Assembly (NCBI GenBank): GCA_963817765.1
Contig: CAWFPX010000010.1
Coordinates: 60,494 to 124,493, forward strand
Source: an uncultured Thermoleophilia bacterium
Lineage (GTDB): Bacteria; Actinomycetota; Thermoleophilia; Gaiellales; Gaiellaceae
Length of the DNA: 64,000 bases
Direction: 5' to 3'
In this document: positions 11,870 through 36,038 of the stretch, piece by piece
Layout of the letters: every line of letters begins with the position of its first letter
How positions within the stretch are numbered: position 1 is the stretch's first letter
Position numbers and translations under genes: made by a program
Notes under the pieces: model-generated
Told to the model about the DNA's origin: nothing
Databases searched by the model: none
What the model saw: the letters and a program-made list of their open reading frames with translations, nothing else

Positions 11870-14450
<2,581 letters not shown>

Positions 14451-15615: not shown

Positions 15616-15636
15616 ACGGCGGCGACGCTGCGATTG

Positions 15637-15666
15637 GGGTTGGGGGCGCCGCGGCGCCCCCAACCC
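15637..15666. terminator. bidirectional GC hairpin between convergent adh and HAD genes
   Basis: gggttgggggcgcc/ggcgcccccaaccc inverted repeat (14 bp arms). Confidence 0.55.
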
Positions 15667-15765
15667 GTTGTCGTTCGATCCGTGGATTCTCCGGTCGGCT
15701 CATCGGCGAAAGCCCCGATGTCACCGCGAGCGGATGCCGCGACACTCGTCTCTGGCGAGGTGCCT

Positions 15766-16890
15766 TCAGCGAGCGGTTGTGCGTCGAAGATCGAGCAGGT
15801 CCTGCAAGCTCGAAGCGGCGATCTCGGCGCCCTGCCGGCGAAGTACCCCGTGCGCCGACGGCGGCGCGATCGCGACCACGAACGCGAAACCCGCGGATTG
15901 TGCTGCCGTGACGCCTGCGGCGGTCGTCTCGAACGCGGCCGACCGGGCGGGCTCGACCTCGAGGTGCCGGCAGGCGGCGAGGAGCACGTCGGGCGCGGGC
16001 TTGCTCCGCAGCCGTTCCCTCACCATCACGTTGCCGTCGATCGACTCGTCGACGAGCTCGGCGATGCCCGAGCGGGCGAGCATGATGCCGTTGCTGGCGC
16101 TGGCCGAGACCACTCCGATGCCGAGCCCGGCGGTGCGCGCGAGGCGCAGATAACGGCGCGAGCCCGCGAACGCTTTGATGTGTCGCTCGCGCAGCAGCCG
16201 CTCGAGCACCTCGCGCTTGCGGTTCGCGAGGCCGTTCACCGTTTCGCTTCCGGCGAGGTCGCGGCGATCGCCTTCGGGCAGACGGATCCCGCGGCTCGCG
16301 AGAAACGCTCGCACGCCCTCGAGGCGCAGCTTGCCGTCGATGAGCTCCGAGTAGTCGCCGCGGGGATCGAACTGGGCGAACCGGCCACCAGCGCGCTCGC
16401 TGCGCCGCCTCAGGAGCTCGTCGAACGTCTCCTTCCAGGCTTCGACGTGGACCGCGGCGCTCTCGTCGAGGACGCCTTCGGAGTCGAAGATGCAGGCGCG
16501 GACACCCGGCGGCAACCCGAGGAGGCGGGGAATGTTCGACGTCGGCACCTGCAGGTCGGAGAACCAGCCGTCGATCCCGCGGTCTCGGGCGAGCGACTCG
16601 AGTGCGAGCCCTGCCGAGGTGCGCTCGCTGCTGAGAGCCGCGGCGCGTCCCCGCAGCGCCTCCGTGGATAGGAACGAGGCCGTCGCGTGAAGCGCCGTCT
16701 CCGCCTGATCCAGCGCTGTGCGCCACGTCGCACTAAGGTGGTCGAGGTCGTCCTCGCCCACAGACGTACTCACGCCGGACGCGCCGGCCGGCTCAGGCCG
16801 AAACGTCGAAGGCGCTGCTGCGTGCGTCTGCTTTCGGCTGCGCGCGGCGATTGTGCGCCCGGGACGGGAGGGGCGAGCTCGCGTGGTCAT
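15766..16890 (-). CDS. HAD-superfamily hydrolase (beta-phosphoglucomutase-like) with ~130-aa N-terminal extension
   Basis: CIFDSEGVLDES (motif I), later GVVSASASN and KPAPD. Start taken at the third Met of ORF 15766..17124, so that it lies downstream of ackA. Confidence 0.6.
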   Translation of the reverse strand: MTTRARPSRPGRTIAARSRKQTHAAAPSTFRPEPAGASGVSTSVGEDDLDHLSATWRTALDQAETALHATASFLSTEALRGRAAALSSERTSAGLALESLARDRGIDGWFSDLQVPTSNIPRLLGLPPGVRACIFDSEGVLDESAAVHVEAWKETFDELLRRRSERAGGRFAQFDPRGDYSELIDGKLRLEGVRAFLASRGIRLPEGDRRDLAGSETVNGLANRKREVLERLLRERHIKAFAGSRRYLRLARTAGLGIGVVSASASNGIMLARSGIAELVDESIDGNVMVRERLRSKPAPDVLLAACRHLEVEPARSAAFETTAAGVTAAQSAGFAFVVAIAPPSAHGVLRRQGAEIAASSLQDLLDLRRTTAR

Positions 16891-16972
16891 CGCCCACTGA
16901 GTCTCGGTGCCGGCCAAGCCTGTGGCGTCGGGGAAGACCGTGGTCGTTCGCTGTGGGAAACCCGCAACGCGC

Positions 16973-17989
16973 TCAGATGAGGCTGCGGACGGCCCGCGCG
17001 ACGACGGCATCCTCGCGCGCCGGGACGACGTGGACGGCGATGGGCGAGGTCGCCGCCGAGATCTCGGCCTGGCCGTGCGCACCCTCGTTCGCCGCTTCGT
17101 CGAGCGCGACACCGAGAAAGGCAAGACGCTCGCAGACGTCGGCGCGTACGTGAGCGGCGTGCTCGCCTATGCCGGCCGTAAAGACGAGCGCGTCGAGACC
17201 GCCGAGGGCGGTCGCCATGCTCGCGACCGCCTGGGCGACGCGGTAGGCGTAGAGCTCGAGTGCGAGCCGCGCTGCGGGAGAGCCGCTCGCCTCGAGTGCT
17301 GCCACATCGGCGGTGCCTGCGAGCGCAAGCAGGCCGGACTCGTGCTCGAGTGCCCGATCGACCTCCTCCACTGAGACGCCGTGCCGGAGCAGGTAGAGCA
17401 GGGCGCCTGGGTCGATCGACCCGGCCCGCGTCGCCATCGGGACACCTTCCAGCGGCGTGAAGCCCATCGTGGTGTCGATCGACGAGCCCGCCTTGACCGC
17501 GGTGACCGACGAGCCGCCGCCGAGATGGCAGACAACGAGTCGCTCGACCTGGACGCGCTCGGAGGCCCACTGGACAGACAGCCCGTGGAAGCCGAACCGG
17601 TGGATGCCGCGGGCGCGGAACCGCTCCGGTAAGGCGTACGTCCTCGCGACCTCGGGCAGAGTCCGATGGAACGCCGTGTCGAAGACCGCAACATGCGACG
17701 TGTCCGGGTAGAGATCGCGTGCCTCCCTGATCGCGTCGAGCGAAGCGCGGTTGTGGATCGGGGCAAGCTCGACCAGGGTCTCGAGACCTGCGACCACTGA
17801 TTCGTCGATCACGACCGGGTCGCCGAACCGGTCGCCGCCGTGGACGACTCGGTGTCCGATCGCGGCAACAGCGGGAACGCCCTCAAGCGAGGCGACCGGC
17901 CGGGATTCGTCGTCCGGGCCGACCACGCTCAGCTTGAGGCTCGTCGATCCCGCGTTGACGACGAGCACGTCGTCAGTCAGTAGGGCCAC
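16973..17989 (-). CDS. ackA: acetate kinase
   Basis: [34 protein letters not shown] and [11 protein letters not shown] at 17989 overlaps the xfp stop; an alternative GTG is at 17968. Confidence 0.85.
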
Positions 17990-20349
17990 GACCAGTCGCG
18001 GATCTCTGGATCGTCGTCGCCGCGCTCGCGTGTGTACGCGCGTGCCGCGAGTCGCCGCTCGACCATGTGCTGACGCAGATGCGCCGCCCGGTCGGCGAGG
18101 TGGGGGACCCGATCGACGACATCAATGACCAGGTGGAAGCGGTCGAGGTCGTTCAGCATCACCATGTCGAACGGTGTCGTCGTCGTTCCCTCTTCCTTGA
18201 ACCCGCGCACGTGCAGGTTGTGGTGATTCGTCCTGCGGTAGGTGAGCCGGTGAATCAGCCACGGGTAGCCGTGGTAGGCGAACACGATGGGTCTTGATGC
18301 GGTGAACAGCGAGTCGAACTCGGCGTCGGACATTCCATGTGGATGCTCGGTGTCCGGCTGGAGCCGCATCAGGTCGACGACGTTCACGACGCGAACCTTC
18401 AATTCCGGGAGGTGCTCGCGGAGCAGCGCCACGGCGGCGAGCGTCTCGAGTGTCGGGACGTCGCCGCAACAGCCCATGACGACGTCCGGTTCACCGCCCT
18501 CGTCCGACGAAGCCCAGTCCCAAATGCCCAGGCCGCGCGTGCAGTGGATGATCGCCTCGTCGATCGTGAGGTAGTCGAGCGCCGGCTGCTTGCCGGCGAC
18601 GATGACGTTGACGTAGTTGCGTGAGCGGAGGCAGTGGTCGGCAACCGATAGCAGTGTGTTCGCATCCGGAGGCAGATAGACGCGGATCACCTCAGCCTTC
18701 TTGTTCACGACGTGGTCGATGAAGCCGGGATCCTGGTGGGAGAAGCCGTTGTGGTCCTGCCGCCAGACGTGCGACGAGAGGACATAGTTGAGTGAGGCGA
18801 CGGGCCTGCGCCACGGAATCTGCCGGGTCACCTTCAGCCACTTGGCGTGCTGGTTGAACATCGAGTCGACGATGTGGATGAACGCCTCGTAGCAGTTGAA
18901 GAGCCCGTGGCGGCCGGTGAGCAGGTAGCCCTCCAGCCAGCCCTGGCATTGGTGCTCGGAGAGCACTTCCATGACGCGCCCGTCGGCTGCGAGACCTTCG
19001 TCGGTCGGCTCGCGCTGGGCGTCCCACGCGCGGCCTGTCACCTCGAAGACGTCACCGAGGCGGTTCGACGCCGTCTCGTCGGGACCGAACAAACGGAAGT
19101 TCGTGCGGTTGGCCGCGATCACATCGCGGAGAAACGCGCCGAGCACGCGGGTTGCCTCGCTCGAGCTCACTCCGGGCCGCTCGACCGTCGTCGCGTAGTC
19201 GCGGAAGTCGGGCAGCACGAGGTCGTGGAGCAACGCGCCGCCGTTTGCATGCGGGTTTGCGCTCATTCGGCGATCGCCCGACGGCGCCAGCGCCTGCAGC
19301 GCGGGGAGGAGCCGACCCTGCTCGTCGAAGAGCTCGTCGGGCCGGTAGCTGCGCAGCCATTTCTCGAGGATCGCGCGGTGGCCGGGGTTCTCGCGCGCTG
19401 CTCCCACGGGCACCTGATGCGACCGCCATGTCCCTTCGACCTGCACTCCGTCGACCTCTCGCGGCCCGGTCCAGCCCTTCGGGGTCTCGAGGATCAGCAT
19501 CGGCCACGTCGGGCGCTCGGTGCTCTCGCCGCTGCGCGCCGCCGCCTGGATGGCGCGGATCTCGTCGAGCGACTCGTCGAGCGCGCCCGCGAAGCGCTGA
19601 TGCGCGTGAGTGGGCGGCTCACCCAGCTCGCTCCGCACGATCCGCGGTCGCCAGCCATACCCTTCGAACAGCGAGATCAACTCGTGCTCCGGGATTCGCG
19701 CCAACACGGTCGGGTTCGCGATCTTGTACCCGTTCAGGTGCAGGATCGGCATGACAGCTCCGTCGGTTACGGGATTCAGGAACTTGTTCGAGTGCCAGCT
19801 CGTCGCCAGCGGCCCGGTCTCGGCTTCGCCGTCCCCGACAACGCACGCGACGAGCAGGTCGGGGTTGTCGAAGGCTGCGCCGAACGCATGCGAGAGCGCG
19901 TAGCCGAGCTCTCCGCCCTCGTGAATCGAGCCCGGCGTCTCGGGCGCGACGTGGGACGGGATCCCGCCGGGGAAGGAGAACTGGCGGAAGAGCTCACGCA
20001 GCCCCGCCTCGTCCTCGGAGATGTGCGGGTAGAGCTCGGAGTAGGTGCCTTCGAGGTAGGCGTTCGCGACCAGCCCCGGCCCACCGTGCCCCGGGCCGGT
20101 GATGTAGATCGCGGAGAGAGCCCGTGCCCTGATCGCGCGGTTCAAGTGCGCGTAGACGAAGTTCAGCCCCGGAGTGGTGCCGAAGTGGCCGAGCAGTCGC
20201 GGCTTCACGTCCTCTGCCTCGAGCGGTCGTCGGAGCAAGGGGTTGTCCAGGAGGTAGATCTGCCCGACCGAGAGGTAATTCGCGGCCCGCCAGTACGCGT
20301 CGATCAGCCCGAGCTCGTCGGGCGGGAGCGGCTGCTCCGCTGTGGTCAG
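17977..20349 (-). CDS. xfp: xylulose-5-P/fructose-6-P phosphoketolase (start codon unresolved)
   Basis: [11 protein letters not shown] and EGGELGY. The conserved N-terminus ([21 protein letters not shown]) lies 37 codons upstream of the track's TTG at 20238, with no ATG/GTG/TTG available there. Confidence 0.9.
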
Positions 20350-20702
20350 CGTCGTGCCTTCTCGAAGATCACGAGCACGCTCAGTTGCTCGTAGCCGACG
20401 AAGCCGTGCTGTGCGCCGGCCGGCACGAAGGTCGCTTCCCCCTCATGCAACTCCACGACCTTGCCCTCGACCTCGAGCGCGCCCTGCCCCTCGAGCACGA
20501 TGTAGACCTCGTCGTCGACATGGGGTTGCTGGTGGTCCGGTTCGGGAGCGACGAGGACGTAGACGCCGATCTCGAGCCCGGGCGAGGAGTGCACGATCTC
20601 ATAGCCGCCCTTCTCGGCCAGCCGGTTCTTGGCGCCGGCGATGTCGAAGGCGTGCGCTACTTGCAGCATCGCGCCCCGCGCCTGCTCACCTGGAGCGTCC
20701 AT
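20346..20702 (-). CDS. cupin-domain protein
   Basis: 118 aa, [27 protein letters not shown] beta-barrel pattern. RBS AAGGAGGTG. First gene of the xfp operon. Confidence 0.65.
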
Positions 20703-20725
20703 TCGGCCCGCACCTCCTTGCTCGA

Positions 20726-20744
20726 CGATCGACTTAGTCGATCG
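20726..20744. promoter_or_regulatory. perfect 9-1-9 palindrome CGATCGACT-T-AGTCGATCG upstream of cupin-xfp-ackA-HAD
   Basis: Read directly from the sequence. Lies 24-42 nt upstream of the cupin start at 20702. Confidence 0.45.
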
Positions 20745-20767
20745 ATACTTGCAGGTCGGCGCAGAAA

Positions 20768-20797
20768 GGTGTGCGGCCGCCTGCGCGGCCGCACACC
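20768..20797 (-). terminator. 13-bp GC hairpin after the cupredoxin-like gene
   Basis: ggtgtgcggccgc-ctgc-gcggccgcacacc, 13 nt beyond the stop at 20810. Confidence 0.55.
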
Positions 20798-20809
20798 GTG
20801 AACGAGGTT

Positions 20810-21229
20810 TCAGCGGACAGTGACGGTCAGCGTGAGGACGTTGTCCTCACCCATCGTCTTGACGCCCTTCATGTAGTCCTCACCGGGCTTCGTCGTGAAG
20901 TGATACGTGCCGGCGTGGGGGAAGGTCACCTTGAGGGTCGCGCCCATGTGGCTCATCGTGTGCGAGCCGGAGAACACGACGGCGGAGCCACTCTTCTTGA
21001 TCAACTGGTGCGACATCACGTCGTTGTCGGTGAAGGTGATCGAGCCGCCGGTAGACAGCTTCAGAGCGGCATGCGGCGTGTAGGGGCCACTGCCGACCGA
21101 CCAGGCGTGACAGCCCATCATCTGGTGGCGGATCGTGACCGACGCGTGCCGCGGCGAGGCCGCGAGCGCACTGGTGGCGACGACAGCGCCAACGGCAAGT
21201 AGTGCGATGAGTGCGGCAACCGACTTCAT
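20810..21229 (-). CDS. secreted Met/His-rich cupredoxin-fold-like protein
   Basis: Signal peptide MKSVAALIALLAVGAVVATSALA, then MMGCHAW, VMSHQL, GSHTMSHMG and GTYHFTTKPGEDYMKG. Fold assignment is tentative. Confidence 0.4.
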   Translation of the reverse strand: MKSVAALIALLAVGAVVATSALAASPRHASVTIRHQMMGCHAWSVGSGPYTPHAALKLSTGGSITFTDNDVMSHQLIKKSGSAVVFSGSHTMSHMGATLKVTFPHAGTYHFTTKPGEDYMKGVKTMGEDNVLTLTVTVR

Positions 21230-21438
21230 GAGAGCTCCGTTTCGTCGAGAATCAATGTCAACTCGCAACCTGACACCGAACGGGCGCGGATGAATGGGCG
21301 GATTCGCTGAACCGATGGCCGTAGTTCGCCGCAGGTCGCCGGTGAGCGGGAGTGAGCCGCAAGAACTCGTAGAAACTCGCGGCCGGGGTCGGGGAACTCT
21401 CGGATGCGTCCGGTTCGCTTCCTGACGAAGCTCCGACC

Positions 21439-21645
21439 ATGCTCGACGAGGTACAGCTGACGGAACGGGAGCGGGTGGCAGCGGTGATGCTTGCGTACGG
21501 GCACACCAATCGCGAGGTCGCGCGCCAGTTGCGGGTGTCCGTCCGCACGGTTGAGTCGGAACGTGCTCGGGTCATGCGGAAGCTCGGTTTCCAGCAGCGG
21601 GCGCAGCTTGTGCGTTGGGCGCTCGAGCGCGGTCTTTTGCGCTAG
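21439..21645 (+). CDS. 68-aa GerE/LuxR-type HTH-only protein (copy 1)
   Basis: Whole length is one HTH domain (LTERERVAAVMLAYGHTNREVARQLRVSVRTVESERARVMRKLG). Its paralogue at 27994 differs by one residue. Confidence 0.75.
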   Translation: MLDEVQLTERERVAAVMLAYGHTNREVARQLRVSVRTVESERARVMRKLGFQQRAQLVRWALERGLLR

Positions 21646-21785
21646 ATGGCCGTCCCGACAAATGTGGGAAACCCGAAATGCGGTTCCGCACGCGCCACGA
21701 TGGCGCGGCGCAGCGCTGAGCCGAGACTCCTCGAAACGGTCGAAGGCGATGAGAGCGTCGGCCCTGAAGAGAAGGAGTAGGGAAC

Positions 21786-22454
21786 ATGCGTAAGTTTTTC
21801 GAAATCGGTGGGCTCGTCGCAGCCGTCGTCCTGATCGCCTTCGGTGTCGTGACGATCGCGATGGGCGTCAATGGACGTGACACGGTGGCTTCGTCGCTGA
21901 AGACCGAGCAGATCACCGGGACGCCTGACATGACGCCGGCCGGGATCACCGCCGCGGCGCAGAAGGCGAAGCTCGATCTGAGCAAGATCTCCATTCCGTC
22001 TTGCTCGGTGGCCAACGAGGCGGTCAACACCGGGGCGAAGGCACGTTGCTTCGCGCAGTACATGCAGATTCATGCGCTGGAGGCGACCGGCGGGTTCGTC
22101 TATGCGCAGATGGGTCAGTTCCAGGCGAAGCCCGGAACGCCGAAGGCCGAGTTGACGCCTGACGGTGCCACCTCGAACAAGGAGTTCGCGGTCCTTGATC
22201 CGAAGACGCAGCAGCCCGTCGCCAACGGCGCCCGCAACGTCTGGGTGACGGAGACGGCGCTGACGACGGCCCTGAACACCTCGTTCATGGCCTCGCAGCT
22301 CGGGCTCTTCGCGATCGTCGTCGGGTTCGCGCTTCTGCTCAGCGGGTTCGGCTTCGCGATCCTCGCGATCGGCGGAGCACTCCGCAACCCCGAGACCGCC
22401 CTGACCTGGTTCTCCCACAAGCCGGCGACACCGACCGCGATCAACCCGGCCTAA
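21786..22454 (+). CDS. bitopic membrane protein of unknown function (copy 1)
   Basis: N-terminal TM (IGGLVAAVVLIAFGVVTIAMGV), ~140-aa ectodomain with 2 Cys, C-terminal TM (LGLFAIVVGFALLLSGFGFAILAIGGAL). RBS AAGGAG 8 nt upstream. Confidence 0.7.
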   Translation: MRKFFEIGGLVAAVVLIAFGVVTIAMGVNGRDTVASSLKTEQITGTPDMTPAGITAAAQKAKLDLSKISIPSCSVANEAVNTGAKARCFAQYMQIHALEATGGFVYAQMGQFQAKPGTPKAELTPDGATSNKEFAVLDPKTQQPVANGARNVWVTETALTTALNTSFMASQLGLFAIVVGFALLLSGFGFAILAIGGALRNPETALTWFSHKPATPTAINPA

Positions 22455-22474
22455 ACCGCCAACCCCCAACCACC

Positions 22475-22510
22475 GCACGAAGAAGGCCGCTTGCGCGGCC
22501 TTCTTCGTGC
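22475..22510 (+). terminator. 16-bp perfect hairpin after the membrane-protein gene (copy 1)
   Basis: gcacgaagaaggccgc-ttgc-gcggccttcttcgtgc. Confidence 0.65.
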
Positions 22511-22564
22511 GTCAGCGTTGTCTCACCCGCCGTGCTCCCGTGGGCCCGGCGCGTTTGCTCACAC

Positions 22565-22745
22565 GGACATGGCCGGTGTCAGACACTGTTCGCTCGCCCT
22601 TCCAGCCACGTCCCGGGCCGCCACGTCCGGTGTCAGACACGCGCACGAAACGGTGACGACTCATCCAGAGGTGGCCACTCACGCGCTACGGAACGGCTTT
22701 GGGGCTGGGTTCAGCGCGCGGACATGGCCGGTGTCAGACACGCGC
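22565..22745. repeat. tandem non-coding repeat array (copy 1; one truncated unit)
   Basis: Core ggacatggccggtgtcagacac(gcgc) at 22565 and 22720, partial core at 22627-22644. The units are homologous to those at 29120-29349. Confidence 0.8.
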
Positions 22746-22897
22746 ACGAAACCGTGACCACACGCCCACGAACCACTGCCACTCGTCGACGGGTCAGCCA
22801 CCCGGCCAGCGCGGTGTTGCTTCGCCCCGGTCGGGCGGTGCCGAAACGGTCGGAGACCGGGCCAGCGGCGCGCGGGCCGGCTGTTCCTCCAGCAGGG

Positions 22898-23150
22898 CTA
22901 TTCCTCCAGCAAGCCCTGGGCGATCGCGTAGCGGACGAGCGCCGCACGGCTCGAGAGGTGGAGCTTCGTCATGATGTGGGCGCGGTGCAGGACGACCCGC
23001 GTTACGTGCGTGAGGTTCGCGGCCGGTGCGACGGGCTACGTCCTGAAGGAGGCGGCTGATGTGGAGGTCGTCGCTGCGGTGCGCGAGGTTGCGCGTGGCG
23101 GCCGCTACGTCCATCGGGAGCTCGGCGCGCGGCTGATCGCGGCCGAGGCT
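22898..23150. pseudogene. rearranged remnant of a NarL-type response regulator
   Basis: 22898-22988 encodes, on the minus strand, ..HRAHIMTKLHLSSRAALVRYAIAQGLLEE*. 22989-23150 encodes, on the plus strand, QDDPRYV..GATGYVLKEAADVEVVAAVREVARGGRYVH.ELGARLIAAEA. Both match the intact regulator at 29500-30157. Confidence 0.8.
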
Positions 23151-23201
23151 CCGTGCTGCCCAAGCCGAAGCTGCGGAAACTATGGTTAGGCCCGGCGGGG
23201 G

Positions 23202-23576
23202 TCAGATCGCGGCAGCGTCTGGATGGCAGGCGAAGATGCTCGGCCGCACCTCCACAAGGGTGCCCGCGAGTGCTGCCGTGCCGGCGCCGATCGGCGCCGA
23301 GACCGTGAGAACGCCGTCACGGACGCGGGCGTGGAGGTTCCGCATGTCCGCCTCGTCGGGAAGCTCGAACGAGCGCTTGAACACCTTGCTTCGCTCCATC
23401 AGCAGGTAGTGGCCGCTGTGCGCCACCGGGCGGCGGCCGCTGACCGTGACCGTGTGCCCCGATGCCTCGACATCGAGGACAGCGTGCTCGAGACCGGGCA
23501 CCTCGACTTCGAGGTGGATGCTCTCGCCGTCATCGATCACGTCGGCTAGCAGGTGGTCTGTCTCGTCGATCAGCAT
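23202..23576 (-). CDS. Hsp20/alpha-crystallin small heat-shock protein
   Basis: HLEVEVPG..VTVSG.R....HYLLMERSKVFKRSFELP...DGVLTVSAP pattern. Starts 9 nt after the USP stop. Confidence 0.8.
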   Translation of the reverse strand: MLIDETDHLLADVIDDGESIHLEVEVPGLEHAVLDVEASGHTVTVSGRRPVAHSGHYLLMERSKVFKRSFELPDEADMRNLHARVRDGVLTVSAPIGAGTAALAGTLVEVRPSIFACHPDAAAI

Positions 23577-23585
23577 GGCCGGTCC

Positions 23586-24056
23586 TCAGCCGACGAAATT
23601 GGCGTTGAGGGAAGGGACAGGCTCCTCGACGTACTCGGCCGCGACCGGAACGACGATCACCGGGACGTGCGCGTCGTGGACGACCTCGGCCGAGACGCTC
23701 CCGGCCATCGCGCGGCGGAGCCTGCCGAAACCGTGGGTGCCGCAGACAATCGCGTCGGCCCCGATCTCATCGGCGACGTGAGCGATCGTGCGAGGAGTCG
23801 CGTGATGCGTCGTCTCGACCAGCAGTTCGACATCGACGCCTTCGGCGTTCAACTCATTGACCTGGGAGCGAATCTTCGCCTTCCGGTCGGTCTCGTCAGC
23901 AAGCAGGGGTGCTCCTCCGACGCGACCACCCCCGAAGCGCTGGTCGCAGAAGAAGGCCACGATGCGTCCACCGGGCTGGAGCAGGCTCCGCGCCTCGGCG
24001 AGCGCCACATCAGCTTCAGCCGATGCGTCCGTCGCCCAGAGAAGTGTCGCGTACAT
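23586..24056 (-). CDS. universal stress protein
   Basis: MYATLLWATDAS.. and C-terminal GTHGFGRLRRAMAGSVSAEVVHDAHVPVIVV. Start is Met98 of ORF 23586..24347. Confidence 0.85.
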   Translation of the reverse strand: MYATLLWATDASAEADVALAEARSLLQPGGRIVAFFCDQRFGGGRVGGAPLLADETDRKAKIRSQVNELNAEGVDVELLVETTHHATPRTIAHVADEIGADAIVCGTHGFGRLRRAMAGSVSAEVVHDAHVPVIVVPVAAEYVEEPVPSLNANFVG

Positions 24057-24384
24057 GACGACTCCTTTCGATCGACACCATCGTCCCGCACGGTGGTCCG
24101 CTCGGAATCGGCTAGAACCCCGATCGGCATGTGGTGAACTACGGGATCCCTGAGGACCGTCGACGATCTTCGCTTCGCGGAGTCGCAGAGTACGCGACGG
24201 TGCGTCGCAAGGATCGGATGACCCCGAATCCGCCCACCGATTCTCTGAGCACCGTCTCGACAGTTGCGATTGGCCCGAACGGTACGATCGGTAGTTCCCC
24301 ACACCTTCGATTTCGTGCCGGCACGGATGCCTCCGGGGGCGTCGCACAGAACCATTGCGGCTAACGACCGGAAAGGAGCTCCAG

Positions 24385-25449
24385 ATGACCTCAATGCTCG
24401 AACAGCCGAAGACGCTGACCGGTGCCGACGCGAAGACCTACCGCGCCGCCGTTGTCCATGACTTCGAAAAACCGCTCACAATCGACGAGATCGACAGGCC
24501 CGAGCTCGCGCACGGCCAAATCCTCGTGAAGGTCGAGGCCTCGGGTCTCTGCCATACCGACATCCACGCGGCTCACGGCGACTGGCCGGTCAAGCCGAGC
24601 CTGCCGTTCATTCCCGGGCACGAGGGCGTCGGGATCGTGGTCGCGCTCGGCCCCGAAGTGACCGAGGTCGAGCTCGGAGACCGCGTCGCGATGCCGTGGC
24701 TCGGCTATGCCTGCGGTGTTTGTGACTACTGCGTCTCCGGGCGCGAGACGCTCTGCCTCGAGCAGAAGAACACGGGTTACTCGATCGACGGCGGCTTCGG
24801 TGAGTACGCGCGGGCATATGCACGTTACGTCGTGAAGGTCCCGGCGAACGTCGACCCATTCGACGCTGCCCCGCTCACTTGTGCGGGCGTCACGACCTAC
24901 AAGGCCGTCAAGGTCGCCGGAACGAGGTCATCGGATCTCGTCGCCGTATTCGGGGTCGGCGGACTCGGCCACATGGCGATCCAGTACGCGCAGATTGCGG
25001 GTGGCCGGGTGATCGCGGTCGACCTCGTCGACGAGAAGCTCGACCTGGCCCGCGAGCTCGGCGCCGAGTTCACGGTGAACGCCGCCAAGGAGGATCCTGT
25101 CGCGGCGATCCAACGTCTCGGAGGTGCAGATCAGGCAATCGCCCTGGCAGTATCGCCACGGTCGTTCGAGCAGGCGTACGGATCGCTCCGGCGCGGAGGC
25201 ACGCTGGTCTTCGTTGCGCTTCCGGCGGACAACGAGATGATCTTGCCGATCTTCGAGACGGTGCTCCAGGGGATCACGGTCGTCGGCTCGATCGTCGGCA
25301 CCCGCACCGACCTGCGTGAGGTGTTCGAGCTTCACGCCGCAGGCAAGACCACGGTGACGCGCGAGATCAGGCCGCTCGACCAGGTGAACGAATCAATCGC
25401 CGATGTCGAGGCAGGTCGCGTGCCCGCGAGAATCGTGTTCTCGATGTGA
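24385..25449 (+). CDS. Zn-dependent alcohol dehydrogenase (AdhA-like)
   Basis: GLCHTDIHAAHGDWP, PGHEGVG, CGVCDYCVSGRETLC and GVGGLGH. RBS GAAAGGAG. Confidence 0.85.
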   Translation: MTSMLEQPKTLTGADAKTYRAAVVHDFEKPLTIDEIDRPELAHGQILVKVEASGLCHTDIHAAHGDWPVKPSLPFIPGHEGVGIVVALGPEVTEVELGDRVAMPWLGYACGVCDYCVSGRETLCLEQKNTGYSIDGGFGEYARAYARYVVKVPANVDPFDAAPLTCAGVTTYKAVKVAGTRSSDLVAVFGVGGLGHMAIQYAQIAGGRVIAVDLVDEKLDLARELGAEFTVNAAKEDPVAAIQRLGGADQAIALAVSPRSFEQAYGSLRRGGTLVFVALPADNEMILPIFETVLQGITVVGSIVGTRTDLREVFELHAAGKTTVTREIRPLDQVNESIADVEAGRVPARIVFSM

Positions 25450-25486
25450 GACGCGACTGCTCGCGGAAAACGCGGGAGACCAGAAG

Positions 25487-25517
25487 GCGGGGTGGCTTCG
25501 ATCCGAGGCCACCCCGC
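25487..25517 (+). terminator. hairpin after adh
   Basis: gcggggtggc ... gccaccccgc (10-bp stem). Confidence 0.45.
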
Positions 25518-25558
25518 GAAGGACGGGATACGGATCTCACCAAGGAGATGCAGCAACG

Positions 25559-26104
25559 ATGATTAGTCCGCTGCTTGTGACCTACGCTTCGAAGCGGGGC
25601 TCGACCAAGGAGGTCGCGGAGGCAATCGCTGAGACGCTCCGCGAGCACAATCCCGACGTCGAGCTCCGACCAGCGACTGACGTCGTGCGCCTGGAGGACT
25701 ACAGCGGTGTCGTTCTCGGTGGGGCCCTCTACACCGGGCGGCTGCACAGAGACGCGCGCACCTTTCTCAGGAGAAATCGCGCTGAGCTTGTTTCGTTGCC
25801 GTTTGCGGTGTTCGCGATGGGACCAAAGACGATCGGGACGACCGAGCTCGCCGGATCGCGAGCACAGCTCGATCGAGCACTCGCCGCCGTGTCGGAGGTC
25901 GAGCCGATCTCCGTCGCGATCTTCGGCGGCGTTGTCGACCCGGCGAGGCTGCGTTTTCCGTTCAACCGCATGCCTGCAACCGATGCCCGGGACTGGACGG
26001 CGATCCGAACCTGGGCGGATGAGCTCTCGAGACTCCTTGCGCGACCCGCCGAGGAAACGCTTCCGCCCGGCGAGGTATCGACCGCAGCCGCTCTCACGGA
26101 CTGA
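25559..26104 (+). CDS. flavodoxin-domain protein
   Basis: LVTYASKRGSTKEVAEAIAETL.. flavodoxin-like N-terminus. Met53 of ORF 25403.., RBS AAGGAG. Confidence 0.6.
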   Translation: MISPLLVTYASKRGSTKEVAEAIAETLREHNPDVELRPATDVVRLEDYSGVVLGGALYTGRLHRDARTFLRRNRAELVSLPFAVFAMGPKTIGTTELAGSRAQLDRALAAVSEVEPISVAIFGGVVDPARLRFPFNRMPATDARDWTAIRTWADELSRLLARPAEETLPPGEVSTAAALTD

Positions 26105-26183
26105 CCTGGTGGCTGAGCAACTGACTGCCGTAGCGCGGGGACGTGAGCAGACGCCTGGTCGTCCCAGAGCCTCGCCCTTGCTG

Positions 26184-26549
26184 ATGATCGAGCTCGTGGT
26201 GGCGGTGAACGCACTCGGCGGAGGGATCTACGGGCTCATGGGCGCGAAGGGTGTACCGCGAGAGTGGCTTGAAGGCACACCATTTCGCAGCTACCTGATC
26301 CCGAGCCTCGTCCTGCTCGTTGCGGTCGCAGGTAGCGCCGCCGTCGCCGCGGCCGCACTCATCGCCGCTCACGAGCGCGCTTCGGAAGCCGGCATCGTCG
26401 CCGGCGTGACTTTGATCGGCTGGATCGTTGTGGAGACCGTGGTCATTCCCTTCAGCTGGCTTCAACCGACCTTTTTCGCGATCGGCATCGCGATCGTTGG
26501 GCTCGGCCTGCGCCGCCGTGCACAGTTGCAACGAGATATCCGGTCGTAG
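26184..26549 (+). CDS. small integral membrane protein
   Basis: Four predicted hydrophobic helices (LVVAVNALGGGIYGL, LIPSLVLLVAVAGSAAVAAAALI, IVAGVTLIGWIVV, FFAIGIAIVGLGL). Confidence 0.5.
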   Translation: MIELVVAVNALGGGIYGLMGAKGVPREWLEGTPFRSYLIPSLVLLVAVAGSAAVAAAALIAAHERASEAGIVAGVTLIGWIVVETVVIPFSWLQPTFFAIGIAIVGLGLRRRAQLQRDIRS

Positions 26550-26620
26550 CAGCACGGGGAGGAGAGCCAAGCGAGACCCTCTCAAGTTGCAGTAGCCGCT
26601 GGCCTCCAGCGGGTGCAGGC

Positions 26621-26911
26621 TCAGACGGTTTCCGCCCGCGAAGCCCAGTCTCGCTTGGCCTCCTCCTCCATTTGTTCCAGCCGCGTGTAGTAGTCCGCGA
26701 ACTCGTTCAGGTGTGCGCGCGCGATCTTGCCGGTGACGTGCGGGTCGTCGCCGGTGACGTTCGTGGCAAGGTCGTGCAGGCCGTGCTCCAGTTCGACGTT
26801 CATTCCGACACGGAACTCCTCGACGTCGAACGGTGAGCTCTCCCAGTCGATGCCGATCTCTTCGCCGACTCGTCTTGCTTCCTCAGTTGTGAAGCTCTGC
26901 CCCTTAAACAT
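26621..26911 (-). CDS. conserved hypothetical protein (NVELEHG motif; DUF5661-like from memory)
   Basis: 96-aa acidic ORF with good RBS (GAAGGAGG). Family name is recalled, not verified. Confidence 0.45.
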   Translation of the reverse strand: MFKGQSFTTEEARRVGEEIGIDWESSPFDVEEFRVGMNVELEHGLHDLATNVTGDDPHVTGKIARAHLNEFADYYTRLEQMEEEAKRDWASRAETV

Positions 26912-27055
26912 CTGAAGCCTCCTTCGTGATCAGCTTGTGACGGGCAGCGACTCCCACCCGCATCTGGCCCGCCAGAACCGCCGTGCCAAGATCACCTCGA
27001 CGGGCTGAGGCCTGATCTTGCTTCGTACCTTTGCGCAGCTCCGGTCCTTTCGGAA

Positions 27056-27313
27056 TCAGTCGTGTTCGGGCTTGCGGAGCCCGTACTTCGCCACGGCCCA
27101 GGTGCCGATAGTCGCGAAGAGCGCCACGGCGACTGCTGACGGGACGCTCGAGCTCGTGCCACCGGGTGTGATAGAGGTGATGTTCGGCCCGAACATTGCG
27201 TCGAACAGCACCGCGAGCCACATCACTGTGATCGCCAGCGACGCCCACATCTCCGTGATCCGAAGCCAAGCGAAACGGCTGTCGACCGAGGACGCGTGCG
27301 AAGTCACACTCAT
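27056..27313 (-). CDS. small membrane protein
   Basis: ATG at 27313 preceded by GGAAGGAGG. Two hydrophobic helices (MWASLAITVMWLAVLF; AVAVALFATIGTWAVA). Confidence 0.5.
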   Translation of the reverse strand: MSVTSHASSVDSRFAWLRITEMWASLAITVMWLAVLFDAMFGPNITSITPGGTSSSVPSAVAVALFATIGTWAVAKYGLRKPEHD

Positions 27314-27642
27314 TTTTTCGGCCTCCTTCCTTCGAGGCCAGCGTGGCACGCGGTGGCCCGGAGGGCATCCGCGAAAATGCTGAACCTGGCTCGGTAGATC
27401 ATCCAGCCACTTGCTCTTCAGCACGCCAAACGGCGTACGCACTGAGTTCTGATACGGGGATCTACGGTTTCGAAGCTGGGAGTTCCCCGGATGCGGACGG
27501 AGCTTCTTGCCGGCAATCTGGGCGGTGCAACAGATCGGAGTCGTCGGTAGGACAAACGCCGAGCCCGACCACCGGAGGCAGAACCCATCCAAACGCGGTG
27601 GCTCGACGCAACGAAATCGAACCGGTCTGGCGAAGGTCACCT

Positions 27643-27670
27643 GGGCCCGCGAAGAGCGGGCCCTTTTTCT
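27643..27670 (+). terminator. canonical intrinsic terminator with no ORF upstream
   Basis: gggcccgc-gaaga-gcgggccc followed by TTTTTCT. The only clear T-tract terminator I saw in the window. Confidence 0.65.
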
Positions 27671-27993
27671 GCGGGTCCGCACGGAGCGCGGGACCGCGAA
27701 TCGACCGATGCCCTGCTGCCGACCCGGGCGGACGATGCTTCCGGCCGCGTCTGCCATCATCCGCGCAGTTCCTGCACCTGCCGGTGGGCTTTGAACGCCA
27801 GGCCCCTTTGTGGTGACCGTCGATCTCGCAAGCGTTCGCAAGAGGAAGAGCGAGTAAACGATGGTCCACGCCCGCGTTCCTCGACTTGCAGCGAGCATCA
27901 ATCATCGACATTGCTCCAGAACCCGTAGAAGTGCGCGCTGCACCGGGGAGAATCTCGGACTGCGTGCGGTTTGTTTGGTGACGATGCTTCGGC

Positions 27994-28200
27994 ATGCTTG
28001 ATGAGGTGGAGCTGACGGAACGGGAGCGGGTGGCAGCGGTGATGCTTGCGTACGGGCACACCAATCGCGAGGTCGCGCGCCAGTTGCGGGTGTCCGTCCG
28101 CACGGTTGAGTCGGAACGTGCTCGGGTCATGCGGAAGCTCGGTTTCCAGCAGCGGGCGCAGCTCGTGCGTTGGGCGCTCGAGCGCGGTCTTTTGCGCTAG
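27994..28200 (+). CDS. 68-aa GerE/LuxR-type HTH-only protein (copy 2)
   Basis: Differs from copy 1 by Q6E. Four of the five nucleotide differences are synonymous. Confidence 0.75.
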   Translation: MLDEVELTERERVAAVMLAYGHTNREVARQLRVSVRTVESERARVMRKLGFQQRAQLVRWALERGLLR

Positions 28201-28340
28201 ATGGCCGTCCCGACAAATGTGGGAAACCCGAAATGCGGTTCCGCACGCGCCACGATGGCGCGGAGCAGCGCTGAGCCGAGACTCCTCGAAACGGTCGAAG
28301 GCGATGAGAGCGTCGGCCCTGAAGAGAAGGAGTAGGGAAC

Positions 28341-29009
28341 ATGCGTAAGTTTTTCGAAATCGGTGGGCTCGTCGCAGCCGTCGTCCTGATCGCCTTCGGT
28401 GTCGTGACGATCGCGATGGGCGTCAATGGCCGTGACACGGTGGCTTCGTCGCTGAAGACCGAGCAGATCACCGGGACGCCTGACATGACGCCGGCCGGGA
28501 TCACCGCCGCGGCGCAGAAGGCGAAGCTCGATCTGAGCACGATCTCGATTCCGTCTTGCTCGGTGGCCAACGAGGCGGTCAACACCGGGGCGAAGGCACG
28601 TTGCTTCGCGCAGTACATGCAGATTCATGCGCTGGAGGCGACCGGCGGGTTCGTCTATGCGCAGATGGGTCAGTTCCAGGCGAAGCCCGGAACGCCGAAG
28701 GCCGAGTTGACGCCTGACGGTGCCACCTCGAACAAGGAGTTCGCGGTCCTTGATCCGAAGACGCAGCAGCCCGTCGCCAACGGCGCCCGCAACGTCTGGG
28801 TGACGGAGACGGCGCTGACGACGGCCCTGAACACCTCGTTCATGGCCTCGCAGCTCGGGCTCTTCGCGATCGTCGTCGGGTTCGCGCTTCTGCTCAGCGG
28901 GTTCGGCTTCGCGATCCTCGCGATCGGCGGAGCACTCCGCAACCCCGAGACCGCCCTGACCTGGTTCTCCCACAAGCCGGCCACACCGACCGCGATCAAC
29001 CCGGCCTAA
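28341..29009 (+). CDS. bitopic membrane protein of unknown function (copy 2)
   Basis: Differs from copy 1 by K66T plus three synonymous changes. Confidence 0.7.
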   Translation: MRKFFEIGGLVAAVVLIAFGVVTIAMGVNGRDTVASSLKTEQITGTPDMTPAGITAAAQKAKLDLSTISIPSCSVANEAVNTGAKARCFAQYMQIHALEATGGFVYAQMGQFQAKPGTPKAELTPDGATSNKEFAVLDPKTQQPVANGARNVWVTETALTTALNTSFMASQLGLFAIVVGFALLLSGFGFAILAIGGALRNPETALTWFSHKPATPTAINPA

Positions 29010-29033
29010 ACCGCCAACCCCCAACCACCGCAA

Positions 29034-29061
29034 CGAGAAGGCCGCGCAAGCGGCCTTCTCG
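29034..29061 (+). terminator. 12-bp perfect hairpin after the membrane-protein gene (copy 2)
   Basis: cgagaaggccgc-gcaa-gcggccttctcg. Confidence 0.6.
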
Positions 29062-29119
29062 CCGTTCTCACGTGTTGACTCACCCGCCGTGGTTCCTGAG
29101 ACCGCGGCGTTGCGCGGAC

Positions 29120-29349
29120 GGACATGGCCGGTGTCAGACACGCGCACAAAACGGTGACGACTCGCCCACAGATGTGGCACCTACCCGCGACGAAACAGCT
29201 TCGGGGCTGGGTGCCGCGCGCGGACATGGCCGGTGTCAGACACGCGCGCGAAACCGTGACCAAACGTCCACTGGGGGGCGCTGCACTCGCGACGAAGCGG
29301 CTTGGGGGCTGGGCTCCGCGGCCGGACATGGCCGGTGTCAGACACGCGC
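29120..29349. repeat. tandem non-coding repeat array, 102-bp period (copy 2)
   Basis: Identical 26-nt core ggacatggccggtgtcagacacgcgc at 29120, 29222 and 29324. The inter-core 76 nt align without gaps at 52/76 identity. Confidence 0.85.
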
Positions 29350-29499
29350 ACGGGACAGTGACCGCACGCGCACGAAACAGTGACGACTCGTCGACGGGTG
29401 AGTCACCTGACAAGCGCGGTGCTGCCTCGCACGGGCGGCCGGCGCCGACGGTCGGACACCGGCCCGCGGCGCGCCGGCCGGACAATTCCTCCAGCAGGG

Positions 29500-30157
29500 C
29501 TATTCCTCCAGCAGAGCCCTGGGCGATCGCGTAGCGGACGAGCGCCGCGCGGCTCGAGAGGTGGAGCTTCGTCATGATGTGGGCGCGGTGCGTCTCGGCG
29601 GTGCGAACGGAGATGAAGAGCTGCTTCGCGATCTCCGAGTTCGTATAGCCGAGAGCAAGCAGCCGCAACACTTCGCGTTCGCGGTCGGACAGCGGGTCCT
29701 CGTCGGCCTTGCGCGCCGCCTCGGCCTCGGCGGCGATGAGCCTCGCGCCGAGCTCCGGATGGACGTAGCGCCCGCCACGCGCGACCTCGCGCACCGCAGC
29801 GACGACCTCGACGTCTGCCGCTTCCTTCAGGACGTAGCCGGTCGCACCGGCGGCGAACGCCTCGCGGACGTAGCGCGGGTCGTCCTGCATGGAGAGCACC
29901 AGCACCTTGGTGTCCGGATGCTCCTTCAGGAGCGTCGGAATCACATCGAGACCGCTGCCGCCTGGCATCACGACGTCCATGAGGATCACGTCCGGCTTGA
30001 GGCTGCGGGCTTCGAAGATCGCCTCGCGGCCGGAGTTGGCCTCGCCGACCGGTTCGATCCCGTCCTCCTGGTCGAGCAGCAGGCGGATGCCCGTGCGTAC
30101 GACAGCGTGGTCGTCGACGATCAGCACACGGACGGCCGGCTCCACGTTCGTGACCAT
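29500..30157 (-). pseudogene. NarL/DevR-type response regulator; 1-nt insertion near 29514 removes the stop
   Basis: VLIVDDHAVVRTG, DVILMDVVMPG, and HTH LSDREREVLRLLALGYTNSEIAKQLFISVRTAETHRAHIMTKL. The copy-1 remnant shows the native end AIAQGLLEE*; here the frame runs on to 29006. Confidence 0.85.
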
Positions 30158-30296: not shown

Positions 30297-32192
<1,896 letters not shown>

Positions 32193-33247: not shown

Positions 33248-33372
33248 CTACGAGCTCAGTCTCGCGACAGGCCCTCGCGGTGGAATCGGGGGGCGCGCGG
33301 GAGCGAAACGCGTAGTTCTCCGCAACCATGCGGCGGCACGCTCCGATTCCGGAGGTCGACTGAAGGAGGACG

Positions 33373-36038
33373 ATGCAGCGGATGACCCCAACGGTTGCCT
33401 CTCAGCTCCCGGTCGCTCCGGCTGAAGATGTTCTGCTGAAGGACGGCTCGACCCTGCGCCTGCGTCCGCCGCATCCCGGCGATGAAGCCGCGCTGATCGC
33501 CTTCTTCGAAGCCCTCTCGCCGGACAGCCGGTACCTGCGCTTCCACGGGACCCGCCTGATCGACCGCAACACGGTCGAGGGCGCGCTCGAGACCGACTGG
33601 CATTCCCGGGGCTCACTGCTCGCGGAGCTGGTCGGCCCGGATGGGGAGCTTCGCCCGGTCGCGCTCGCGACCTACGTCCGCCTGCGCGATCCGGCGCGCG
33701 CCGAGGTTGCGTTCGCCGTCGCCGACGATCTGCACGGCCGCGGGATCGCGACGCGGCTGCTCGAGCGCCTGGCGGTCCACGCGTCGGCGGCTGGCGATCC
33801 AGAAATTCGTCGCCGAGGTGCTTCCGCAGAACACTGCGATGCTGCGCGTGTTCGACGACGCCGGGTTCGCGACGTCGCGGGTGCTCCAGGACGGCGTCAT
33901 CGAGGTGCTGCTCTCGCTCGGCGGCGGCCGCGACTTCGAGCGCCGGCGCGACGAGCGCGACCACCTCGGGGTCACCGCGTCGCTGAGGCCGTTCTTCAGT
34001 CCGGCCTCGGTCGCCGTGATCGGAGCCTCAGCCCGGCGCGGCACGATCGGTGGCGAGCTCTTCCGGAACGTGCTCCAGGCGGACTTCACCGGCGCCGCGT
34101 ATCCCGTGAACCGCGGAGCCGAACCGGTCGGCGGCGTCGGCGGCTACGCCTCGATCGCCGACGTTCCGGCGCCCGTCGACCTCGCGGTGATCTGTGTTCC
34201 GGGCGAGCGCGTGCTCGACGCGGTGCAGGGCGCGCTCACGGCCGGCGTGAAGGCGATCTGCGTGATCTCCGCGGGCTTCGCCGAGATCGGGTGCGGAGGG
34301 AGCGCGTGCGCCAGGACGAGTTGCTGGCACTCGTGCGCGCCCACGGCGCGCGCCTGATCGGGCCGAACTGCCTCGGGATCGCCGCCACCGGCCCGCGTCT
34401 GAACGCGACGTTCGCGCGGCGCGCGGTTCCGCCGGGACGTGCCGCGTTTTCCTCGCAGAGCGGCGCGCTCGGCCTCGCGCTCCTCGAGGCTGCCGACGGA
34501 CGTGGCCTCGGCCTCTCCTCCTTCGTCTCGATCGGCAACAAGGCCGACGTCTCGTCCAACGACCTGCTCGAGTACTGGGAGGACGACGAGGCGACCGACG
34601 TGATCCTGCTCTATCTCGAGTCGTTCGGGAACCCGCGCAAGTTCGCGCGCGTCGCCGGACGGGTCGCGCGCTCCAAGCCGATCCTCGCCATGCGCAGCGG
34701 CACGAGCCGCGCCGGCGCGCGGGCGGCGAGCTCGCACACGGCGGCTCTCGCCGGCTCCGACGGCGCCGTCGAAGCGCTCTTCTGGCAGGCGGGCGTCATC
34801 CGCGCCCGCACGCTCGAGGAGCTGCTCGACACCGCAGTGCTCCTCTCGTCGCAGCCGCTGCCGGCCGGCAACCGCGTCGCCGTGCTCACGAACGCCGGCG
34901 GGCTCGGCATTCTCTGCGCGGATGCCTGCGACGCTGCCGGGCTCGAGTTGCCGCCACTGGCCGCGGAGACCCAGGAGAAGCTGCGGCTCTCGACACCGGT
35001 CGAGGCCAGCCTTTCGAATCCGGTCGATCTGCTCGGCTCGGCGACCGCGGCAGCCTACGAGGCGGCGCTGCCGGCGTTGCTCGCCGACCCCGGCATCGAC
35101 GCGGTGATCGCGCTCTTCGTCCCGCCGGTCGTCGCGACCGCGGACGATGTCTCGGCTGCGATCGCGCGCGCGTCCGTCGGCTCGGACAAGCCGGTGCTCC
35201 CCGTTGTGATGAGTGCGGACGGAACCTCGGGCGGCGGCTACGCCTATCCGGAGTCGGCGGCGCGTGCGCTCGGGCTCGTCGCGCGCCGCGCCGCGTGGCT
35301 GCGCCGGCCCGCGGGCGAGATCCCGCAGCTCGACGACATCGATCGCGACGCGGCGCGCGGCTGTCGTCAACGGCTCGCTTGCCACGTCGGACGACTGCTG
35401 GCTCGAGCCGGCCGCCGCGCGTGAGCTTCTGAGTGCCTACGGGCTCCCGATCGTCGAGGAGCGCTACGCGGAGACCGTGCCGCGAGGCGGTCGCTGCAGC
35501 CGACGAGCTCGGCTACCCGGTCGTCGTGAAGACAGCCGTTGCCGGCGCGCACAAGACCGAATCGGGCGGCGTGGTCGTCGACCTGCGCGACGCCCAGAGC
35601 GTGACGGCAGCGGTCGAGCGGATCGGCGGTCCGGTGATCGTCCAACCGCACGTTCAGGGCGGCGTCGAGCTGCTCGCGGGCGTGATCCAGGACCCTGTCT
35701 TTGGGCCGCTCGTCGCGTTCGGAGCGGGCGGAGTCCTGGCCGAGCTGATCGGCTCTGCGCGCCTCGCCCTCGCACCCCTCACAGACATCGATGCCGACGA
35801 GCTCGTCTCCAGCGGAAAGGCCGGCCGCCTCGTCGCAGGCTGGCGCGGAGCCGCTCCGGCAGACAAGGTCGCGCTGACCGACGTCGTGCACCGGCTCGCA
35901 CGCCTCGCCGAGGATCATCCCGAGATCGCCGAGCTCGACCTGAACCCGGTGATCGCCGACGAGCACGGGTGCGTGGCGGTCGACGCCAGGGTTCGCGTGC
36001 GCAGGCCGGACGGCCTGCAGCAGCCGAAGACCTGGTAG
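33373..36038 (+). pseudogene. GNAT acetyltransferase fused to ADP-forming acyl-CoA synthetase; at least 4 frame breaks
   Basis: GNAT (AFAVADDLHGRGIATRLLERL), CoA-binding domain (VAVIGASARRGTIGG; GPNCLGI), ATP-grasp C-terminus (GYPVVVKTAVAGAHKTESGGV). RBS GAAGGAGGA. Confidence 0.75.

Follow-up and report, generated by a model that had tools for sequence, protein, structure and literature searches.

Background

The tufA/tufB gene pair is an example of concerted evolution by gene conversion. The same behaviour has been described for prokaryotic paralogues (PMC6053082) and for rRNA operons (PMC8022953). Here we analyse a 64,000-nt stretch of contig CAWFPX010000010.1 (the window; coordinates are window positions) from an uncultured Thermoleophilia bacterium of the Gaiellaceae, in which a two-gene operon encoding a small helix-turn-helix (HTH) regulator and a membrane protein is present as two direct repeats, copy A on the left and copy B on the right, with a cassette of stress genes between them. 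As in concerted evolution, the paralogues are closer to each other than to their orthologues, the tract of near-identity is sharply bounded and synonymous sites are homogenised. The locus differs from the translation-gene cases in its unit, a small regulator plus membrane-protein operon of an uncultured member of the Gaiellales, and from long-term concerted evolution in that there are two copies, for which one recent event suffices. It is well supported as an ordinary but clean case of gene conversion: the behaviour is already known, while this operon and this lineage are a fresh instance.

The arrangement also recalls the amplifiable units of DNA (AUD) of Streptomyces. In S. lividans, a DNA-binding protein is likewise encoded in the 1-kb repeats of AUD1. 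The model of Young and Cullum (1987), as summarised in PMC5869714, proposes that the formation of such units begins with recombination between direct repeats. By analogy, our locus may be regarded as a few-kb actinobacterial segment between direct repeats of several hundred nt or more and >90% identity that are potential RecA substrates; unlike in the Streptomyces case, no amplification or deletion junctions were observed here, and the host is not a Streptomyces.

A third point of comparison is the mycobacterial DosR/DevR-DosS system. It is matched here by a NarL-type regulator paired with a GAF-GAF-HisKA_3 kinase, and its regulon by Hsp20, universal stress proteins and redox enzymes encoded close by. 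The likeness comes from architecture and gene content; VraR and NarL score at least as high as DevR in structure comparison. We know of no counterpart of the operon's two proteins in the DosR/DevR regulon. The regulator of the operon is, like GerE of Bacillus subtilis, a bare GerE/LuxR-type HTH domain of 68 aa, and differs from a quorum-sensing "LuxR solo" in having no autoinducer-binding domain.

Near-identical operon copies between diverged flanks

A gapped global alignment of 21200-23000 with 27755-29600 yielded, for the core of the repeat (21439-22474 versus 27994-29029), 10 mismatches in 1036 nt and zero gaps (99.0% identity). This agrees with a preliminary description of the locus, which had reported a ~99% identical two-gene module with ten differences, four of them (21444, 21447, 21453 and 21454) inside the initial 21 nt. 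The remaining six mismatches are at 21609, 21709, 21875, 21985, 21992 and 22427, and all differences between the cores are substitutions. The abrupt collapse of identity described for both sides was also recovered. Upstream, the copies match at 56 of 76 nt (74%; 21362-21438 versus 27918-27993), and no similarity was detectable beyond this flank in the alignment of A with B. Downstream, identity is patchy, with 38-85% per 50-nt block across 22486-22880, and climbs back to 97-99% at 22880-22988 (versus 29481-29591). The patchiness noted earlier thus stands, and the low identity is partly structural, as it falls in a repeat array (see below). Divergence is clearly not uniform across module and flanks: the 6 differences in 1020 nt of the core compare with 20 in 76 nt of the upstream flank (Fisher p = 9e-20), and with 17 in 166 nt of an inverted piece further downstream (p = 7e-11).

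Self-BLAST delimits the whole homologous unit to 21362-22988 versus 27918-29591 and adds the inverted piece just mentioned (22986-23149 versus 29889-29724, 90%), which the preliminary description had not listed. The direct repeats are offset by 6555 nt and their near-identical cores are separated by 5519 nt; the outer limits of homology leave 4768 nt (23150-27917) between the copies, which corresponds to the 4.8-kb cassette proposed before. Because homology is present in both flanks and keeps its order downstream, the flanks belonged to the duplicated unit.

Core and flanks with conflicting histories

A scan of species-representative genomes with the membrane protein yielded 80 loci, and in none of these were two operon copies found within 10 kb. 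The nearest relatives, L001 and L002 (~91-92% nucleotide identity to the window) and L003 (~82%), have one operon directly between a cupredoxin-like gene and a response regulator gene, and the cassette is absent. The same single-copy order was found in L012, L029, L169 and probably L170. For comparison within the species, exact matches were sought to the membrane proteins of both copies, the copy B HTH protein, Hsp20 and the DUF5661 protein, and no record was returned. L001 and L002 are two contigs of one Thermoleophilia bin (MFD04967.bin.3.124), which is probably a mixture of two related populations; their versions of the locus share ~92% identity. Since the window is collinear with L001 over 11786-22586 (left flank and copy A) and again from 27944 (copy B and right flank), copy A is native on the left and copy B on the right. 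As to whether one or two copies are ancestral, a question for which the preliminary description had called for related genomes, the single copy is the likely ancestral state; the layout of a cassette-bearing contig, L161, also fits an old duplication.

Over the 1020-nt core, A and B differ at 6 positions, whereas either copy differs from L001 and L002 at 70-88. The two copies share 19 derived sites, and the cores group by genome. The upstream flanks group otherwise: those of copy A, L001 and L002 share 84% identity in each pairing, whereas that of copy B is 72-74% identical to all three and branches outside the A/L001/L002 orthologue group, matching L003 at 83% over 54 nt. It is this conflict between the flank and core phylogenies that we regard as the signature of gene conversion, and it bears out the earlier suggestion of an older duplication homogenised in this way. 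Synonymous divergence (dS) of the membrane gene is 0.018 between the copies but 0.15-0.21 relative to the L001/L002 orthologues; for the HTH gene the values are 0.08, nearly all of it in the first six codons, and 0.24-0.55. The 140-nt spacer between the two genes is as identical between the copies as their synonymous sites. By these comparisons, the operon copies coalesce ~10 times more recently than the lineage split from its nearest relatives, and the non-native flanks are old.

The 5' limit of the tract lies between 21454 and 21455, in codon 6 of the HTH gene. At the four variable sites in the first 21 nt, copy B is identical to L001 in all four cases and copy A to L002 in three. The 3' limit is the terminator hairpin, and immediately past it A resembles L001 and L002 while B diverges. 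The tract thus appears to coincide almost exactly with the operon, and it probably ends where the non-coding flanks were too diverged for strand exchange.

The 7-kb ENA contig L161, representing a sister lineage, came to our attention because it encodes a protein (P0121) that is 99% identical to the cassette alcohol dehydrogenase. Its order, operon terminator, cassette, operon and regulator, is that of the window (Table 1), and its membrane protein coding sequence (CDS) differs from that of the cassette-less L001 at none of 666 positions. The two contigs carry adjacent numbers (64462 for L001, 64459 for L161). Such a pair would look like a presence/absence polymorphism or an unresolved repeat. 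If the layout of L161 and the window has a single origin, the duplication would predate the lineage split, and the homogenisation would have come after it, because the window copies are 0.6% apart and the orthologues 7-8%.

Our favoured explanation, to which we assign a probability of roughly 80%, is an old segmental duplication in a DevR/DevS-type stress neighbourhood, the operon copies of which were later homogenised by gene conversion. According to this proposal, the operon would have been duplicated long ago as direct repeats 6555 bp apart, and non-reciprocal homologous recombination would then have overwritten ~1.02 kb of one operon with the sequence of the other. For a slow-growing order of soil actinobacteria without cultured members at hand, the locus would provide a well-resolved natural case of gene conversion, in which outgroups date duplication and homogenisation separately.

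Several points weigh against this explanation. The two-copy structure is known from the assembly alone and not from reads, and the assembly contains many probable indel errors. The assembly of this genome showed no junction indicative of amplification or deletion. The presence of a full left-hand operon copy in L161 is deduced from 67 nt, and the origin of L001 and L161 from one sample is suggested by contig numbering and sequence identity. The cassette genes show lower dS between the window and L161 (alcohol dehydrogenase 0.156, flavodoxin 0.08, 121-aa open reading frame (ORF) 0.086, DUF5661 gene 0.049) than the flanking genes do between the lineages (phosphoketolase 0.26, cupin 0.20, cupredoxin 0.23). 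The cassette may for this reason have moved between lineages after their split, which weakens the argument from the shared layout to a shared old duplication. Finally, either copy may have been the donor; at four of the six core sites that differ, copy B seems to carry the derived state.

Alternative explanations

The second copy and the cassette could have been imported from a related Gaiellales lineage with its own diverged version of the locus (cassette, diverged upstream flank, operon and repeats) by recombination in the conserved operon and regulator sequences, with the operon being homogenised afterwards. This we regard as possible but rather unlikely; it addresses how the duplication arose and does not conflict with a conversion step. 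It is in keeping with the position of the copy B upstream flank outside A, L001 and L002 and its resemblance to L003, with a cassette dS relative to L161 of about half that of the flanking genes, and with the frequency of the single-copy layout among relatives. However, none of 170 loci offered a donor in which the cassette is followed by a diverged upstream flank and the operon, and the G+C content of the cassette (62-66%) fits the adjacent native region. Among the 80 loci of a metagenome scan with the DUF5661 protein the best match was 85%, and none had an assembled cassette adjoining the operon. A later conversion would still be required to account for 99.4% identity.

Far less probable is an assembly artefact, in which two strain haplotypes, or a repeat that was first collapsed and then re-expanded, had been joined serially although the real genome has one operon copy. 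The many frameshifts, typical of an unpolished long-read metagenome assembly, and the cassette-bearing contig beside a cassette-less one in the sister sample would suit such an origin. Against it, the path is continuous, with unique sequence at each junction, and a duplicated assembly node would produce neither the substitutions between the copies nor the different old flanks. The independent contig L161 also leads from operon terminator through cassette to an operon copy.

We consider it very improbable that the operon was duplicated recently, with no conversion and with flank similarity due to shared regulatory motifs only. The near-identity of the cores taken by itself and the 13-nt box found in both upstream flanks could be accommodated, but homology extends over 76 nt upstream and ~500 nt downstream (repeats and regulator fragments, in conserved order) and is nevertheless 10-26% diverged; moreover, the layout recurs in a lineage at ~92% nucleotide identity. 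Purifying selection alone, which the preliminary description had named as strong selection in place of conversion, has a negligible probability: both proteins are strongly conserved (nonsynonymous divergence, dN, of 0.002-0.007 between the copies), yet selection alone is insufficient because neutral sites, synonymous positions and the spacer alike, are homogenised as much as constrained ones, and orthologues under the same constraint reach roughly tenfold the dS of the copies.

Possible deletion or amplification of the cassette

Whatever their origin, 1-kb direct repeats of 99.4% identity would allow the 5.5 kb between them to be deleted by RecA-type recombination and, in principle, to be amplified in tandem. 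Loss of the cassette by homologous recombination, as proposed in the preliminary description, is plausible: the cassette-less relatives have the structure expected after repeat-by-repeat deletion and may include deletion products, and L161 fits as well, short of proof, while a single copy is likely also the ancestral state. The locus illustrates how a stress-gene block can turn into a recombination-prone unit. For metagenome-assembled genomes it means that contigs break and strains differ at near-identical 1-kb repeats, as seen for L001 and L161, and that presence or absence of a cassette at such repeats should not be taken as gene gain unless there is read evidence. A more far-reaching idea, to be considered improbable, is that the cassette might switch the presence or dosage of DevRS-type stress genes at the level of the population, with conversion keeping the repeats recombination-competent; in that case the operon would represent an accessory, so far undescribed and linked to the membrane, of a soluble GAF kinase system.

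Table 1. Features of the duplicated operon, its surroundings and the sister contig L161 (window positions unless preceded by L161)
Feature	Position	Strand	Remarks
Upstream flank of copy A, native promoter region	21362-21438	+	box AGAACTCGTAGAA at 21362-21374; 84% to orthologous regions of L001/L002, 74% to copy B flank
Copy A gene 1, 68-aa stand-alone GerE/LuxR-type HTH protein	21439-21645	+	Pfam GerE E = 9e-15, residues 6-61
Homogenised tract, copy A side	21455-22477		6 differences/1020 versus 28010-29032
Copy A gene 2, 222-aa membrane protein	21786-22454	+	family without a name
Copy A terminator hairpin	22476-22509	+	five-way alignment; self-complementary BLAST hit 22474-22511
Repeat array after copy A	22555-22790	+	three cores ..CCGGTGTCAGACAC.., one with ~54-nt internal insertion
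Regulator fragment 1, last ~30 codons and stop	22898-22988	-	orientation as intact gene; 99% to 29515-29591; ending ...AQGLLEE* ancestral
Regulator fragment 2, internal piece	22986-23149	+	inverted relative to intact gene; 90% to 29889-29724
Hsp20/alpha-crystallin	23202-23576	-	Pfam HSP20 E = 4e-16
Universal stress protein	23586-24056	-	Pfam Usp E = 2.5e-19
Zn-dependent alcohol dehydrogenase, AdhP type	24385-25449	+	NCBIfam AdhP 350.7 bits (cutoff 344); 99% aa identity to P0121 (L161)
Flavodoxin_5-family protein	25559-26104	+	Pfam E = 1.7e-19
121-aa membrane ORF	26184-26549	+	no Pfam/NCBIfam family; orthologue at L161 2026-2391
DUF5661 protein	26621-26911	-	Pfam E = 4e-21
85-aa membrane ORF	27056-27313	-	GGAGG ribosome-binding site; no family match; missing from L161
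~600-nt stretch without convincing ORF	27314-27917		27425-27743 at 91.5% in L161
Upstream flank of copy B, diverged homologue of 21362-21438	27918-27993	+	box AGAACCCGTAGAA kept; 72-74% to A/L001/L002 flanks
Copy B gene 1, GerE-type HTH protein	27994-28200	+	Q6E is the single amino-acid difference between A and B
Copy B gene 2, 222-aa membrane protein	28341-29009	+	K67T relative to copy A (A/B comparison)
Repeat array after copy B	29104-29385	+	three 102-nt units
NarL/DevR-type response regulator	29500-30157	-	Pfam Response_reg and GerE; closest solved structures VraR, NarL, DevR
GAF-GAF-HisKA_3-HATPase_c histidine kinase, DevS/DosS-like architecture	30546-32192	-	intact (575 aa) in L002 and L003
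Operon stop codon and terminator	L161 1-67		100% to L001
Alcohol dehydrogenase, flavodoxin, 121-aa ORF	L161 72-2411		95.0% to window
DUF5661	L161 2677-3160		97.5% to window
Conserved gap segment	L161 3214-3531		91.5% to window
His_Phos_1 gene	L161 3741-4538		not in window cassette
Last 70 nt of HTH gene and membrane gene	L161 4985-6014		91.9% to window
Intact regulator	L161 6036-7076		CDS 98.3% to L001

The duplicated operon

All reading frames of the two operon copies and of the cassette genes are intact in the window. The HTH protein contains no Pfam domain besides GerE; it can be aligned to the 74-residue PedR model of NCBIfam, with a score below the cutoff of every NCBIfam family. The membrane protein has no match in either Pfam or NCBIfam, although >8000 homologues were found in databases, the named ones belonging to Gaiellales/Gaiellaceae metagenome-assembled genomes. 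Some sources mislabel homologues as ATP synthase subunit c/K. Its AlphaFold model (pLDDT, the predicted local distance difference test, of 85) shows a small helical domain between two long terminal helices, and no fold match was obtained for it in the PDB (best Foldseek E-value 0.9). As an unnamed conserved family beside DevRS-like systems, it is a reasonable target for functional work.

Each HTH gene is preceded, ~65-75 nt 5' of its start, by a 13-nt box, AGAAC[T/C]CGTAGAA (21362-21374 and 27918-27930). The box is conserved in L001, L002 and L003 despite divergence of the flank and has no further exact copies in the window besides these two, which makes it a candidate promoter or operator element. 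At the other end of the operon, the hairpin of copy A has become perfectly palindromic and its loop is inverted, reading TTGC, whereas copy B (29031-29064) and all three nearest relatives have GCAA. Seven clustered differences between A and B are explained by this one event, which we take to be a template-switch mutation at a quasipalindrome.

Repeat arrays and regulator fragments downstream

An array of ~102-nt tandem repeats comes after the terminator hairpin in both copies. The units share a conserved core of ~39 nt, GGACATGGCCGGTGTCAGACACGCGCACGAAAC.GTGAC, which includes the palindrome GTGTC-A-GACAC. The window contains six occurrences of a 16-nt part of this core, GGCCGGTGTCAGACAC, always between a membrane gene and regulator-gene sequence, that is in two intergenic regions. 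Comparable arrays are found in relatives (L001 10778-10990, L002 ~10780, L161 ~5971), with the order and number of units varying by lineage, and related palindromes, CCGGTGTCAGACACCGG, in L004 and L124. The first unit of copy B is closest to the first units of L001, L002 and L161 (75-79%). That of copy A carries a ~54-nt insertion seen elsewhere in the second unit of L001 (72%), and the last unit of copy A pairs with units 2 and 3 of copy B (82%). The low downstream identity between the copies would thus be partly structural, arising from a fast-turnover array with shuffled units.

We discarded the idea that the 102-nt repeats are a structured RNA or an element similar to repetitive extragenic palindromes (REP): no folding signal was seen on either strand (z of -0.02 to +0.80 versus shuffled controls), Rfam gave no match at the gathering threshold, and the copies are confined to the two intergenic regions. 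The core may instead be a protein-binding site.

Downstream of the copy A array are two fragments of a response regulator gene. The inverted one is 92%, 91% and 82% identical to the regulator genes of L001, L002 and L003, respectively; over its columns, the regulator genes of the window, L001 and L002 differ from one another by ~2-9%. With a divergence of 8-10% from these three genes, the inverted fragment adds to the evidence that the non-native flanks are old. The first fragment lies in the segment 22880-22988, which was rejected as a second conversion tract, as this part of the regulator is 98-99% identical even between species.

The cassette

Of the cassette content given in the preliminary description, Pfam and NCBIfam searches confirmed Hsp20, universal stress protein, alcohol dehydrogenase and flavodoxin, and they added a DUF5661 protein; the small membrane proteins are represented by two ORFs without family matches, which brings the stress-type genes to seven. 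A composite transposon or other mobile element was considered and rejected: the repeats encode a GerE-type HTH and a membrane protein, and no transposase or integrase domain was detected by Pfam or NCBIfam in the cassette proteins. The ~600 nt at 27314-27917 include a strong terminator-like hairpin on the + strand (27643-27663, with a T-rich tail to 27673). For this stretch, tblastx against all loci and the window returned only noise; a small RNA and a decayed gene are possible readings.

A second universal stress protein gene is located at 37577-38073, with 77% identity to that of the cassette. At the corresponding downstream position, L003 has an Hsp20-universal stress protein pair (19765-20663) that is 80% identical to the cassette pair, whereas in the window Hsp20 is missing from that position. 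This downstream neighbourhood is a possible source of the left part of the cassette.

The neighbouring two-component system and assembly quality

The response regulator gene is convergent to copy B; many relatives likewise have it to the right of the operon, where it is native. In the species-representative scan, a convergent regulator was found within 2.5 kb of the operon in 32 of the 73 loci with sufficient room. In the window regulator gene, an extra base at ~29515 exchanges the end ...AQGLLEE* for a 165-aa run-on across the repeats. The kinase gene is split over four frames in the window, with frameshifts at ~31863-31871, 31841, 31006 and 30686. Other genes are broken alike: one of 889 aa at 33364-36035 is distributed over five frames (breaks at 33795, 34288-34305 and 35360), and further split genes occur near 51000 (51160-51590). 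In each case single extra bases disrupt genes that are intact in L002 and L003, and amino acid identity on either side of each break is 94-100%. Judged by this pattern, the frameshifts are probably indel errors of a long-read assembly, and true decay of kinase and regulator is less likely. If the frameshifts are real, the two-component system is a pseudogene pair.

In L001, an IS481-family insertion of ~1.03 kb (12086-13115; Pfam LZ_Tnp_IS481) is present at the 3' end of the kinase gene, between kinase and regulator, equivalent to ~30541-30546 of the window. It is the sole insertion sequence seen and lies off the repeats; contig L161 stops at the same point.

Further to the right, ~11 kb of the window (38750-49792) are missing from L002 between collinear blocks. 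This segment ends beside a tRNA gene (49798-49870), may be a genomic island, and contains a His_Phos_1 gene (48956-49693) that is 70% identical to the His_Phos_1 gene of L161.

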